A stretch of 64,000 bases of DNA. It comes from a virus. Lineage: Duplodnaviria; Caudoviricetes. The stretch spans positions 32,001 to 96,000 of IMG/VR virus record IMGVR_UViG_3300031992_000039; one strand, 5' to 3'. Shown in pieces: positions 18,069 through 29,427 of the stretch. The position numbers and the translations under genes were made by a program. The notes under the pieces were generated by a model. The model saw only the letters and a list, made by a program, of their open reading frames with translations. It made no database searches and had not been told where the DNA came from. The stretch's first letter is position 1. Every line of letters begins with the position of its first letter.

Positions 18069-18542
18069 TTAACCTTTCGGTGTAATCGCTACATTGAACG
18101 TGCGGTTCAGAATTGGAACGGCATCTACAATTCTAAACTCATACTTTTTATTATCAAACGGAATCTGGGTTTCGTTGATAAACACATTAAATAGATTATC
18201 ATTAGGCCACTCTATATAAAGTGAGAACATATATTCTATTCCGCTAGGAGTTTGTGCCTTACTTTGAAATCCATAATATGTATATTCACGATCTGGTCTT
18301 AACGCAGGATTATCAACACTAATCGGTACACCATCTTTCATTGCTACAAATGCAGTATCTCCACTGCTTATAGGTATCAATTCACCCTCGGTGTCAAAAT
18401 TGCCAACTGTGATATTGATCACATTAGATTCAAGACCACCGGACGGCTTCGTATCCATCCCATCAAGCAAACTTTTTAAAACCGCAGGATTTGTATTCTC
18501 AGGGCTCTTCATTACATATTCAATAACTTTATCTACGCTCAA
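18069..18542 (-). CDS. Anchor-module protein (YVMxSPxNTNPAVLKSL) with a variable beta-rich domain
   Basis: N-terminus shared with 28204-29427 and 27913-28128. Confidence 0.65.
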   Translation of the reverse strand: MSVDKVIEYVMKSPENTNPAVLKSLLDGMDTKPSGGLESNVINITVGNFDTEGELIPISSGDTAFVAMKDGVPISVDNPALRPDREYTYYGFQSKAQTPSGIEYMFSLYIEWPNDNLFNVFINETQIPFDNKKYEFRIVDAVPILNRTFNVAITPKG

Positions 18543-19474
18543 AGTCCAATGACCTCCTTTAAATATTTCATACTACTATATCCATTTCCATCGGCAAGTA
18601 CAGCCCAACCATTTACAATCGCGCCAACCTCTACAATAGTACCTTTCTTAATCTTTCCACAAATATCATATTTAGTAGAAACGCCATTCCTTATATTTAA
18701 ATTTCCCGTCGCTACATAACTCTTAGGCTTCAGCGCGACAAAATGGAAATATTTATTTTTTACATTAGAGGTATAAGCGTACCCATCTATAGTTATAATT
18801 TTATACCAACCGTCAGGATAAATTTCTAAAACCTTAACTTGCTCACCCTTCTTAATTTCTCCTACGACTTGGCTATTTAAATTGGCTTCTGAACGAATCC
18901 TCATCTTTTGTTTGGCATATGCCGTACCAATTACCTTTCGTTCCTCAGCTGTAATCTCTCCATCATTCAGTACAATTGCTGTATGGCCAGTTGTACAAGT
19001 AACTAAAATATCACCTTTCATAAGATATTTAGATGTATCAGTAATTGCTTTATCAGTTATAATATCGAACTCACCCGTTGCACGTAATATGCTAGCCTCA
19101 TTTCCAGTATAAAAATCACCTACAAAAATTCCCGCATAGGCGCAACAGAGCCTTACAAGCGCGGAACAGTCTACTTCGACTGGCTCTGTAATAGAACCGG
19201 GATCATAGTTTCCACCATTCTTTTTCTTACACCAATTATATGCAGTGTATCTCTGGTCTTTATCATACCCGATATTATCATTTTCGCAGGCCCGGCGCAT
19301 TGCATAAGCTAATTTCTCTCTAATATCTTCGCTTTTCGCGCGAATGATATTCCATCCCTTCTTATTAGGATACCAATCTTCTATGCAGACCTCGAATCCA
19401 TCTTGATCGCCTGCTTGACCGCCGCGGCCCTTTCCATTTTCATCGCGTTTCGCGGAACCAATTTTAACCTTCAT
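18539..19474 (-). CDS. Endolysin: NlpC/P60-type peptidase with two SH3b domains
   Basis: IGYD..R, DCSALV, GDIL...GHT; LNIR-type SH3 repeats. Confidence 0.85.
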   Translation of the reverse strand: MKVKIGSAKRDENGKGRGGQAGDQDGFEVCIEDWYPNKKGWNIIRAKSEDIREKLAYAMRRACENDNIGYDKDQRYTAYNWCKKKNGGNYDPGSITEPVEVDCSALVRLCCAYAGIFVGDFYTGNEASILRATGEFDIITDKAITDTSKYLMKGDILVTCTTGHTAIVLNDGEITAEERKVIGTAYAKQKMRIRSEANLNSQVVGEIKKGEQVKVLEIYPDGWYKIITIDGYAYTSNVKNKYFHFVALKPKSYVATGNLNIRNGVSTKYDICGKIKKGTIVEVGAIVNGWAVLADGNGYSSMKYLKEVIGL

Positions 19475-19489
19475 TTATTTCACCTCAAT

Positions 19490-19882
19490 TCAAATCTTAT
19501 TTTTATTTACTTCGGCTTCTATGCATTCCTCAATATATTTAGTCAAGTCGCCATAAATGCTTTCTAGATACTCGCGCGCATCATCTGATAAGATAGCTAA
19601 AATAGCTTCATAAGTACGCTTAAAAGCTTCTTTTTGAGCTTCCCCATCAAAAATATTTTCTCCTTTAAGTGCATCTACATATGTTTGATTTGTTGCAATA
19701 ACACAATTACAAATCGTATCTGTTAACAAACTTATATACTTATTTGCTAACTCATTATCTGATCGTGTCTTAATGTTTTCCACTTTCGCTCGAATAACCT
19801 TAATCAGATAAACCGTAAGTAAGCTTAAAAGAGGCACGATAAATATAGTGAAGATTTCATTTAAAATTTTTATCCAATCCAT
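19490..19882 (-). CDS. Putative holin (LL-H-like)
   Basis: N-terminal TM, QTYVDALK, IEAEV; adjacent to the endolysin. Confidence 0.7.
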   Translation of the reverse strand: MDWIKILNEIFTIFIVPLLSLLTVYLIKVIRAKVENIKTRSDNELANKYISLLTDTICNCVIATNQTYVDALKGENIFDGEAQKEAFKRTYEAILAILSDDAREYLESIYGDLTKYIEECIEAEVNKNKI

Positions 19883-19884
19883 TC

Positions 19885-20193
19885 TTAACCCTCTGCATCC
19901 TCTAAATTATTGGTATTCTCATATTCAAAAGGAACACCATCACTATTAATGCCATATTTATTACGACTATTCTTTAATCCCATCTGATATAATAAATAAC
20001 TTAAAAGCGAGGCTATAACGGTACTTACATTAACAACCGCCAGTGTTGGCTCAGGCATCTCCGAACTTGTTTCAATAGCAAGTCTACAGAGAGTATAATA
20101 CTCTATTCCACACCAAATACCATAAACCGCGAAAATGGCGGCAATTAAGGAACAAAATAACTTCGACCATTCAATTTTTTTCTTCTTTTTCAT
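19885..20193 (-). CDS. 2-TM membrane protein (holin-like)
   Basis: KKKK-EWSK lead, two TM segments, first gene of the lysis operon. Confidence 0.6.
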   Translation of the reverse strand: MKKKKKIEWSKLFCSLIAAIFAVYGIWCGIEYYTLCRLAIETSSEMPEPTLAVVNVSTVIASLLSYLLYQMGLKNSRNKYGINSDGVPFEYENTNNLEDAEG

Positions 20194-20220
20194 AGTCTAC
20201 CTCCTTATACTCCTATAAAT

Positions 20221-27865: not shown

Positions 27866-27868
27866 AAT

Positions 27869-27899
27869 AAAAAAGAAAGGTTTGAACCTTTCTTTTATT
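27869..27899. terminator. Bidirectional terminator
   Basis: AAAAGAAAGGT/ACCTTTCTTTT between convergent genes. Confidence 0.7.
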
Positions 27900-27912
27900 T
27901 TTAGATTTTATT

Positions 27913-28128
27913 TTACGCCTTAGCTGATTCTTCTTGTTTGGACTGGTTAAATTTTTGAAAGATTGCTTTTATAATTGCGGGATTCACATTATTAGGTGTT
28001 TCAAGCACATAAGTAATTATCGCATCTTCTAATGAAAGAACTACTTCCGCTGCCGCTTCCTGCACCACTTCAGGCTCACTTTCGAGGCCTGGAGCATTGT
28101 CATCTATTTCAAATTCTCTTTCTTCCAT
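27913..28128 (-). CDS. Small acidic protein carrying the anchor module
   Basis: IITYVLETPNNVNPAIIKAI matches the shared module. Confidence 0.65.
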   Translation of the reverse strand: MEEREFEIDDNAPGLESEPEVVQEAAAEVVLSLEDAIITYVLETPNNVNPAIIKAIFQKFNQSKQEESAKA

Positions 28129-28203
28129 TTAATTTTCCTCCTATATAAAATTTTATTACTTTTTCTCTTCATTTCGGATGGGACATCGAGATTAATCAAA
28201 AGA

Positions 28204-29427
28204 TTAACCCAAACAGAAGCCGGGCACAACACCGTTAGCATTGGAAGCATCGTCGCCGCCGCCGCTACCGTCACCGAAGACGATCCCGAAGCCGCTGGCA
28301 CCAGTCTTCTCGTCGAAAAAGCCAGATCGCAACCGCCAGAAAATTGGACTACTATCCAGCAAATTAGGTTTGCGTCTAATTCGAGTTGACGGGCTATACA
28401 CTGGACCGGTAGATTCGTAGATGCCAAATATCTCACGAGTTGACGGTATCCAAATAGTTTCCACAGACGACATCTCAGTGAATACTTCACCGGATGCAGT
28501 AAATCCGATGCTATGTTTCACAACGGGAGTGAGATTAGTTCGCACAACTTCAGGTAGCAGTGCTTTAATGGTTGTATCGAGGTATGTTTTCATTTCAGAC
28601 GCAGGATAACCGCCTAAACAACCCGTACCCGAAGTACCTGCTGAATACGCCGGATTCATTCGATGTGTAGTTGTAAGGGCCTGTTTCGCAAGGAATGAAA
28701 GCGGAACTACATCACCATTCTCTTTGACATCCTTATCAATTCCGACAATTTCATATCTGATAGTACCTTCAGCACCCATGTCGATCGTTTTGTAGTCATG
28801 CAGGTGATACTTTGTCGCATAAGTGCCGTCCTGTGTCGCTGAAATTATCTGTTCCCAAGTATCTGTGATTTCTACTCCCGCGTCTTCACCGTAATGGATA
28901 ATAGCGTTAGTGGCTCCCCAAGGAGCTCCCGCAACTGCACCACTTGCCCATGGGACATATATATCAGCTAATGCTGTAAGTCCTTGGAACGCTAGGTTAG
29001 AAATGAATGAAGGAGTTCCGCGGAATGTGACAGACGCGAGCGCTGTATCTCCGCTGAACGCCTTCTCCGAGATCTGGACACAATTAGCGGGAATAGTGAA
29101 GGAAGTAAGCGCGGTCAATCCTGCCAGACCGCCTAACGCGATTCCATACAAGTTATCGCATTCTAGTTGAGTCATGTGAGACAACTCGAGTGTAGGAAGA
29201 ACTAATCCGTTGATTCCGGTTCCGTACGTACCAATGTACGCTGAATTGACAACAGCACCCTTAGTGATGTTACCGCTGGAATCCTTCTCAAGCGCAACAA
29301 ATCCACGAACGGACGATGTATCGCCACACTCTTCTGGTAAATTATCTACTAAACTTTTTAAGACCGCATAGTTTGTATTATGAGGTGTATTCATTACATA
29401 ATTTATAACTTCTTCTTTTGTACTCAC
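28204..29427 (-). CDS. Anchor module + BspA-type LRR + DUF6273/CLec-like domain; probable DGR target
   Basis: LTSFTIP..ISEKAFSG LRRs; C-terminal WRLRS...V..DG.....A....GVVPGFCL; NNC/NNT-codon-rich 3' end. Confidence 0.75.
   Translation of the reverse strand: MSTKEEVINYVMNTPHNTNYAVLKSLVDNLPEECGDTSSVRGFVALEKDSSGNITKGAVVNSAYIGTYGTGINGLVLPTLELSHMTQLECDNLYGIALGGLAGLTALTSFTIPANCVQISEKAFSGDTALASVTFRGTPSFISNLAFQGLTALADIYVPWASGAVAGAPWGATNAIIHYGEDAGVEITDTWEQIISATQDGTYATKYHLHDYKTIDMGAEGTIRYEIVGIDKDVKENGDVVPLSFLAKQALTTTHRMNPAYSAGTSGTGCLGGYPASEMKTYLDTTIKALLPEVVRTNLTPVVKHSIGFTASGEVFTEMSSVETIWIPSTREIFGIYESTGPVYSPSTRIRRKPNLLDSSPIFWRLRSGFFDEKTGASGFGIVFGDGSGGGDDASNANGVVPGFCLG

Follow-up and report, generated by a model that had tools for sequence, protein, structure and literature searches.

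A short N-terminal leader with exchangeable adhesin-type cargo in large siphophages of gut and rumen

We analysed 64,000 nucleotides (nt) of IMG/VR record IMGVR_UViG_3300031992_000039 (bases 32,001-96,000 of a complete 111,327-bp siphophage record with direct terminal repeats; hereafter the window) and found that a module of about 27 amino acids (aa), shared by three of its minus-strand open reading frames (ORFs A, B and C), is an interchangeable N-terminal leader for adhesin-type cargo. In our view, the chances are about even that this leader serves to attach or assemble accessory proteins of adhesin type, with docking on the particle as the probable mode. The three ORFs were confirmed at 18069-18542, 28204-29427 and 27913-28128 together with the peptides first reported for them, and neither a six-frame regular-expression scan nor a profile search of the whole genome found more than these three copies (E 1e-20 to 2e-21).

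18069..18542, minus strand: ORF A, 157 aa; module at aa 1-27, a short Gly-containing linker and an orphan cargo of about 115 aa
18462..18542, minus strand: module-coding segment of ORF A, from alignments
28204..29427, minus strand: ORF B, 407 aa, a chimera of the module (aa 1-27), a BspA-type leucine-rich repeat (LRR) and a DUF6273/C-type-lectin-like domain
29347..29427, minus strand: module-coding segment of ORF B, AT-rich, with 16% GC at third codon positions (GC3) over nt 1-96
27913..28128, minus strand: ORF C, 71 aa; the module (aa 31-62) lies between an acidic N-terminal extension and a short charged tail
27943..28038, minus strand: module-coding segment of ORF C, a divergent subtype 35% identical to that of ORF A

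An initial annotation of this DNA had described a shared anchor fused to swappable cargo in three unlinked genes. The shared module is real, at exact coordinates and with the profile scores given above; the genes fall into two loci, since ORFs B and C lie 75 nt apart in one unit. The description of ORF C as carrying only an acidic tail was inaccurate, its module being internal behind an acidic N-terminal extension. At the DNA level, the modules of ORFs A and B share 80% nucleotide identity over 61 nt.

The module consists of a core, YVMxTPxNTN, followed by A-V-L-x-x-M-L-D/E. A first scan of IMG/VR yielded about 22 module ORFs at ten loci, where they often stand in tandem as groups of two to four. 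A profile hidden Markov model was built from 18 module ORFs, searched among 1.84 billion representatives of clusters at 50% identity, and the domains fused to the module were catalogued. The search recovered 2,162 clusters at E<=1e-3 (603 at E<=1e-10), with varied cargo behind the module; as the same module heads so many clusters elsewhere, its match among the three ORFs is not due to chance. Its sequence is kept at about 50-60% identity in over 2,000 clusters from many phages. We derived representative-level statistics from the top 149 (or top 150) proteins, which have a median length of 140 aa (top 149). In 144 of 149 representatives, the module starts at one of the first three residues; ORF C (residue 31) and the protein P0016 (residue 124) are exceptions. 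The 12 residues behind it contain 23% Gly and 13% Ser, compared with 8% each in the background.

All members of the family come from metagenome assemblies. Every genomic context that we fetched was a large siphophage-like contig, mostly of about 100-130 kb, from gut and rumen, and these contigs share a synteny of UvrD helicase, GyrB/GyrA, ligase, RNase H, ClpP with PhoH, and Sipho_tail. No match to the module was found in Pfam, NCBIfam or PHROGs by HMM scans or in PDB sequence profiles. ORFs A and C matched no family at E<=0.1 in the curated libraries, and ORF B matched LRR_5 only. A word-index search with residues 1-40 of ORF B returned only ORF B itself. Comparison of the module proteins with 50,697 GenBank phage records by tblastn gave no true match, the Mycobacterium phage rows obtained (E 0.7-7) being noise, and scans of 185,579 bacterial and archaeal genomes with two patterns, narrow enough that divergent copies could escape them, gave chance matches only. 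By the curated libraries and the literature searched, the module appears to be a previously undescribed domain present in phage sequences only. It marks hypervariable accessory genes in abundant, uncultured phages of gut and rumen.

Next we examined the sequence behind the module. BLAST comparison sorts the cargos of 126 module proteins into 72 groups with no relation to one another, and the cargo of ORF A has no relative among the 126 others. In three pairs of related phages, DNA homology ends just past the module-coding segment (codons 28-48). Between the contigs L008 and L011, 1.9 kb of DNA is 99% identical as far as codon 28 of a module gene, beyond which the sequences are unrelated, and a second gene of this pair breaks at codon 35; homology between L023 and L008 breaks at codon 31, and that between L007 and L009 at codon 48, after module plus linker. 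Furthermore, module genes fill several plastic genomic slots: between the helicase and topoisomerase genes (in either orientation), behind the endolysin gene (a slot also used in L012/L013), and behind the ClpP-PhoH pair. Together with the reappearance of the ORF B cargo under other leaders, described below, the 72 cargo groups and the boundary breakpoints strongly support the idea, first put forward in the initial annotation, of a modular tag with interchangeable cargo.

The recognisable cargos are all of binding or adhesin type: BspA LRR, DUF285, C-type-lectin-like targets of diversity-generating retroelements (DGRs) and YadA-head. A Pfam domain is present in only 7 of 149 representatives, in every case from an LRR family (LRR_5 in six, DUF285 in one), and YadA_head repeats were found separately as module cargo. 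In L015, the cargo of a 420-aa module protein matches PHROG 5302 'tail protein' (5e-26) as well as a crAss-like phage gene that adjoins a reverse transcriptase gene and is annotated as 'tail protein; similar to sulfatase, major tropism determinant'. No Pfam enzyme domain was found among the module cargos. Ig-like domains were likewise absent from the Pfam scan of 149 representatives, and we saw nothing of the Hoc-like character proposed in the initial annotation. The cargo of most members comprises 100-800 aa behind a flexible linker; many cargos of about 100 aa matched no recognised domain, and PDB profile searches with the two largest families of small cargo found nothing. For ORF A, a cargo described as beta-rich could not be confirmed, as this description rests on a low-confidence single-sequence AlphaFold2 (AF2) model (predicted local distance difference test, pLDDT, 41) that we judged unusable; leads from the ESM Atlas (aegerolysin, actinoporin, lectin-like, 0.84-0.89) fall under the reliability line of the tool.

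ORF B allows the exchange to be followed in more detail, with the following features.

28180..29325, minus strand: acquired cargo block; 1,148 nt align with a DGR target gene in the contig L027 at 86.4% nucleotide identity
28216..28330, minus strand: variable-region-like 3' end of ORF B, matching both the variable region and the template repeat of the L027 DGR

L027 is a 127.5-kb pig-gut phage contig whose positions 9001-12259 hold a complete DGR, located among nucleotide-metabolism genes: an LRR+DUF6273 target, a 134-aa gene that we read as Avd-like, a template repeat (10771-10885) and a reverse transcriptase. The homology of ORF B to the L027 target runs from codon 35 through 24 nt beyond the stop. 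This junction between module and cargo coincides with an abrupt jump in GC content already described in the initial annotation, the first 96 nt having 27% GC (GC3 16%) and the rest 48% (GC3 43%). Compared with its orthologue P0240, ORF B shows 88% protein identity over aa 29-407, and the differences are almost confined to aa 352-392, the variable region. The complete 111,327-bp genome contains no match to the reverse transcriptase family PF00078 and no second copy of the ORF B 3' end that could be a template repeat. The 3' end of ORF B is an orphan DGR variable region.

We recovered about 60 orthologous clusters of the ORF B cargo, and none carries the module. Their N-termini are instead either a leader of some 42 aa that opens with TIKYNSQ (or a variant of it) or a leader of a third kind. 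The TIKYNSQ-type leader heads P0237-P0287 and has no Pfam annotation, and a similar leader is present on an LRR protein encoded beside module genes (L006:4165-5739). The occurrence of the same cargo behind different leaders indicates that one cargo can be served by interchangeable leaders. Judged from these alignments, ORF B is a recent chimera in which the resident module replaced the usual leader of a DGR target. It is a clear example from nature of such a target being taken over without the retroelement and given a new address by exchange of its leader, and it shows a route by which diversity in receptor binding can pass between unrelated phage lineages.

The identification of the ORF B cargo as LRR plus DUF6273-like holds indirectly. 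Our own hmmscan of ORF B gave no match to PF19789 (DUF6273), and the LRR_5 score, 26.8 bits, is to be compared with a Pfam cut-off of 27.7. The identification comes through relatives and through the ESM Atlas: PF13306 is recorded for ORF B and most of its orthologues in the precomputed annotation, relatives of the C-terminal domain (54-60% identical over the full domain) carry PF13306 and PF19789, and the Atlas assigns DUF6273 at 0.98 for 30 of 30 matches. DUF6273 has been described as a C-type-lectin-like DGR target and a likely receptor-binding domain (PMC10743442; bioRxiv 10.1101/2024.10.15.618418). By these relatives and the Atlas, the ORF B cargo is a C-type-lectin-like domain with a C-terminal variable region, akin to known DGR targets such as Mtd of Bordetella phage BPP-1 and the DUF6273 C-type-lectin targets of gut phages, including the 'tentaclins' (PMC10743442). 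Unlike in usual DGR targets, the leader has been replaced by the module, and the cognate template repeat and reverse transcriptase are found beside the L027 orthologue rather than in the same genome.

We then considered when the module genes are expressed. ORF A is the fourth and last gene of a lysis operon (membrane protein, holin, endolysin, ORF A) and thus shares it with holin and endolysin.

18539..20193, minus strand: lysis-operon genes upstream of ORF A, from Pfam and PHROG matches, comprising the next three
19885-20193, minus strand: membrane protein (Pfam/PHROG)
19490-19882, minus strand: holin (Pfam/PHROG)
18539-19474, minus strand: endolysin, ELLD+SH3 (Pfam/PHROG)

Read from the coordinates, the stop codon of the endolysin gene and the TTG start of ORF A overlap (TTGA), and the sequence AAGGAGG lies 9 nt ahead of this start. 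We sought close relatives of the endolysin whose following gene could be compared and found none. A second line of evidence comes from relatives (L012/L013 and L022) that are clearly TAG-recoded in non-early genes. In L012, in-frame TAG codons occur in an endolysin-like gene, in the module gene behind it and in fibre-like genes; the genes for ligase, glycosyltransferase and RNase H have none. In L022, TAG is present in two of the three module genes and absent from the helicase and GyrB genes. Counts in the recoded relatives reach seven in-frame TAGs in the endolysin-like gene and seven in a 410-aa gene. The position in the lysis operon and the pattern of TAG codons point, indirectly, to late translation of the module genes.

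The initial annotation had placed all three units behind a late motif. The only sequence of this kind that our attempt to define a late promoter brought up is a 16-mer shared by two units.

29487..29502 and 20243-20258, minus strand: 16-mer TTTCARAWYTATAGAG, upstream of ORF B and of the lysis operon

The two copies are 12/16 identical, and the rest of the genome contains no exact match. The 16-mer is absent upstream of the head and tail genes, and no separate copy precedes ORF C. By our own estimate, a 12/16 match is expected by chance between two AT-rich spacers of 140 nt, and these spacers also hold sigma-70-like promoters for divergent plus-strand genes. We could not confirm the late motif on this basis.

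A portable tag on proteins that look late recalls the internal proteins IPI-III of phage T4, unrelated proteins that carry a portable N-terminal tag and are encoded at hypervariable loci. By analogy with the T4 capsid-targeting signal (CTS; IPI-III, Alt), the module could direct cargo into the prohead, where the tag would be cut off by the head protease and the cargo later injected with the DNA. The likeness extends to the placement of the module at the extreme N-terminus (the 144 of 149 representatives noted above), to the unrelated proteins behind it and to the hypervariable loci. We nevertheless think this very unlikely. No invariant cleavage-type motif of a head protease ends the module; its last positions vary (D, E, N, K, G) and are followed by the Gly/Ser linker. 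The module is longer than a CTS (27 aa), is predicted to fold, and can be internal or duplicated in tandem. While T4 CTS cargo consists of enzymes and anti-restriction proteins, the recognisable cargo here is made of binding domains, namely LRR, lectin-type and homologues of DGR tail-fibre targets, and no enzymes. Finally, the ClpP-like gene of these phages sits with PhoH among non-head genes.

Tandem double modules are present in 33 of the top 150 proteins. An AF2 model of one double-module protein, from a 30-sequence alignment, contains helices at 3-12, 19-25, 28-40 and 47-54 (pLDDT about 75-80) and a disordered tail. Four short helices for two modules make each module a helix-turn-helix unit, and the module is accordingly predicted to be two short helices joined by a capped turn. 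Searches with this model gave only weak, non-specific helical matches, in the PDB by Foldseek (best E 5.3), with VIA-align (best Z 4.1) and in BFVD (best E 2.8), from which it does not follow that the fold is new.

The four-helix model fits a small domain able to pair, be it with itself or with some partner. If the pairing is with itself, the module could be a dimer- or trimer-forming domain that gives avidity to soluble late binding proteins, which would be released at lysis without ever belonging to the particle. Conserved hydrophobic residues occupy about ten of the 27 module positions, more, in our judgement, than one hairpin could bury on its own; in addition to the tandem modules, the location of ORF A among lysis genes and not among tail genes agrees with such a role, as does that of module genes in plastic, non-structural slots. 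It leaves unexplained why the module sequence is held at the identity given above across more than 2,000 clusters while the cargo changes, and why the same cargo bears other, unrelated leaders, and we consider it unlikely.

Short forms raise another question. Thirty-six of 149 representatives are at most 100 residues long, and among them the double module that ends in a conserved hexapeptide tail is frequent. The hexapeptide repeat, xVGxAxVG in about three repeats, was found on 17 proteins, mostly double-module proteins of 75-85 aa (P0009-P0038 and others), and may be another connector or a trimerising beta-helix. One short form comes from a gene split by a TAG codon: in the complete 114-kb relative G001 (L007:5995-6588, plus strand), a single in-frame TAG separates linker and cargo of a module gene, so that termination gives a cargo-less product of 69 aa and read-through a module-cargo protein of 197 aa. 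This TAG could be a nonsense mutation or a site of programmed read-through; no suppressor tRNA was found in the 27 kb scanned around the tRNA array.

Given such forms, the module may itself be the active part, binding a factor of the host or of the phage (inhibition or the timing of lysis being examples), with the attached domains only modulating or localising it. Forms with no or nearly no cargo are common, a complete relative encodes a 76-aa form only, and ORF A, as read from coordinates, is translationally coupled to the endolysin. Against this, most members carry adhesin-type cargo of 100-800 aa behind the flexible linker, and the hexapeptide tail of many short forms looks like a second conserved, connector-like element. 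We hold this reading to be improbable; the 'filler or regulator' proposed in the initial annotation for the cargo-less copy is only one of several readings.

Collectively, a conserved N-terminal mini-domain, a linker, exchangeable binding domains, breakpoints at the boundary and interchangeable leaders match the pattern known for the N-terminal anchors of phage receptor-binding proteins (RBPs) and lead us to read the module as an attachment or assembly leader. The module stands at the start of the protein, followed by a flexible Gly/Ser-rich linker and by binding-type cargo that is freely exchanged through recombination at the 3' boundary of the module-coding DNA or immediately beyond it. Under this hypothesis, the leader would attach adhesin-like proteins to one common partner or assemble them into oligomers. 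The partner would most likely be a virion component, and the module would then act like these anchors of RBPs. Late expression, docking and the identity of the partner are the parts of this reading that we infer.

Several observations weigh against the attachment leader. The three module genes lie far from the head and tail genes, in the lysis operon (18 kb) and in an opposite-strand island among replication genes (28 kb). No GenBank phage carries the module by tblastn, and no candidate receptor protein for it was identified. As to late expression, homing-endonuclease genes of L022 also carry TAG, which makes TAG-bearing genes not strictly late structural ones; the module gene is co-oriented with helicase and topoisomerase genes in L014 and L005, and lies among early-looking accessory genes in L010. 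The double-module model has only moderate confidence (predicted template modelling score 0.48), and one complete relative holds a single 76-aa module copy and no other. In L006, L009, L012 and L022, by comparison, module genes adjoin fibre-like genes, a term that rests partly on our own reading of motifs.

That a conserved anchor carries swappable receptor-binding parts is a known principle. In branched systems of Klebsiella phages, the second RBP has a conserved N-terminal docking peptide (PMC6872550; PMC13352976). RBP anchors resemble the module in having a short conserved N-terminus, an exchanged binding part, recombination at the boundary and several copies per phage. The conserved N-terminus with boundary breakpoints is found here (codons 28, 31 and 48, and 35 in ORF B), as is adhesin-type cargo among those cargos that could be recognised (LRR_5, DUF285, YadA_head, DUF6273, Mtd-like). 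Unlike genes for RBP anchors, the module genes of this genome are neither in nor beside the tail block; we found no relation in sequence or fold and identified no branching or acceptor domain, and attachment through the module is only inferred. By the libraries and literature searched, neither this domain family, with its size and its confinement to uncultured phages, nor the existence of alternative leaders, nor the capture of a DGR target through a change of leader appears to have been described.

Other known systems share fewer features. Like the dockerins of cellulosomes, which pair with cohesins, the module is a small, often duplicated helical tag with varied cargo in a rumen and gut setting. 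Dockerins have an acidic calcium-binding loop pattern. Such a loop is not visible in the conserved turn of the module, Pfam scans gave no dockerin match, and no cohesin-like partner of the module is known. T4 Hoc and T5 pb10 are, like the module proteins, non-essential proteins of adhesin type with a proposed display on the particle; they bind through folded domains of at least 75 aa and not through a 27-aa leader, and the Pfam scan of the representatives gave no Ig-like domain.

If the module is a true attachment leader, it offers a sequence handle for host-interaction and adhesion genes in metagenomes and a natural fusion point for the display of foreign domains. More tentatively, large gut and rumen siphophages might possess a combinatorial 'plug-and-play' adhesin system, a possibility to which we give rather less credence than to the attachment leader itself: several short, unrelated leaders (the helical module, the beta-type TIKYNSQ leader of about 42 aa and one or more others) would each have their own docking site on the particle, tiny double-module proteins with hexapeptide tails would serve as adaptors, and cargo, including already diversified DGR targets from other phages, would be swapped by recombination at the leader boundary.

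The remaining features concern the surroundings of the module genes.

17913..17932, minus strand: terminator-like hairpin closing the lysis/ORF A unit, from sequence
27871..27896, no strand assigned: bidirectional terminator-like hairpin at the point where ORF C and the UvrD-like helicase gene converge

ORFs B and C form a minus-strand island between the genes for a UvrD-like helicase and a GyrB-like topoisomerase, and the hairpin at 27871-27896 closes this unit. ORF C has AGGAGG before its ATG and ends in TAA, and AGGAGG-type ribosome-binding sites precede those module genes that were read. The window is AT-rich (37% GC) and includes a tRNA array, a plus-strand block of replication and nucleotide-metabolism genes (about 20-56 kb) and, from about 56 kb and past the window edge, a minus-strand tail block (56,000-64,000 and beyond) in which a 2,616-aa ORF is taken to be the tape-measure gene; the head block was placed outside the window. 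A tRNA with anticodon CTA, an amber suppressor, is encoded at 15848-15941 (minus strand), although the ORFs of 16-30 kb do not change when TAG is read as Gln. We rejected TAG recoding in this window, as these ORFs are not longer under that code.

A ClpP-like protease gene followed by a 273-aa gene lies at 9817-11401 (minus strand), outside the head module. The 273-aa gene is taken to be PhoH-like from synteny with L007, where the equivalent gene matches PhoH, and in L007 and L009 a module gene directly follows the ClpP-PhoH pair. Finally, the tail-region genes at 58531-61081 (minus strand) are unusually GC-rich, at 48-56% compared with 37% for the window. A 463-aa ORF of this region has a short helix at its N-terminus, seven consecutive Gly and a fibre-like repeat, which is the same layout as that of the module genes: a short leader, a Gly hinge and acquired cargo.

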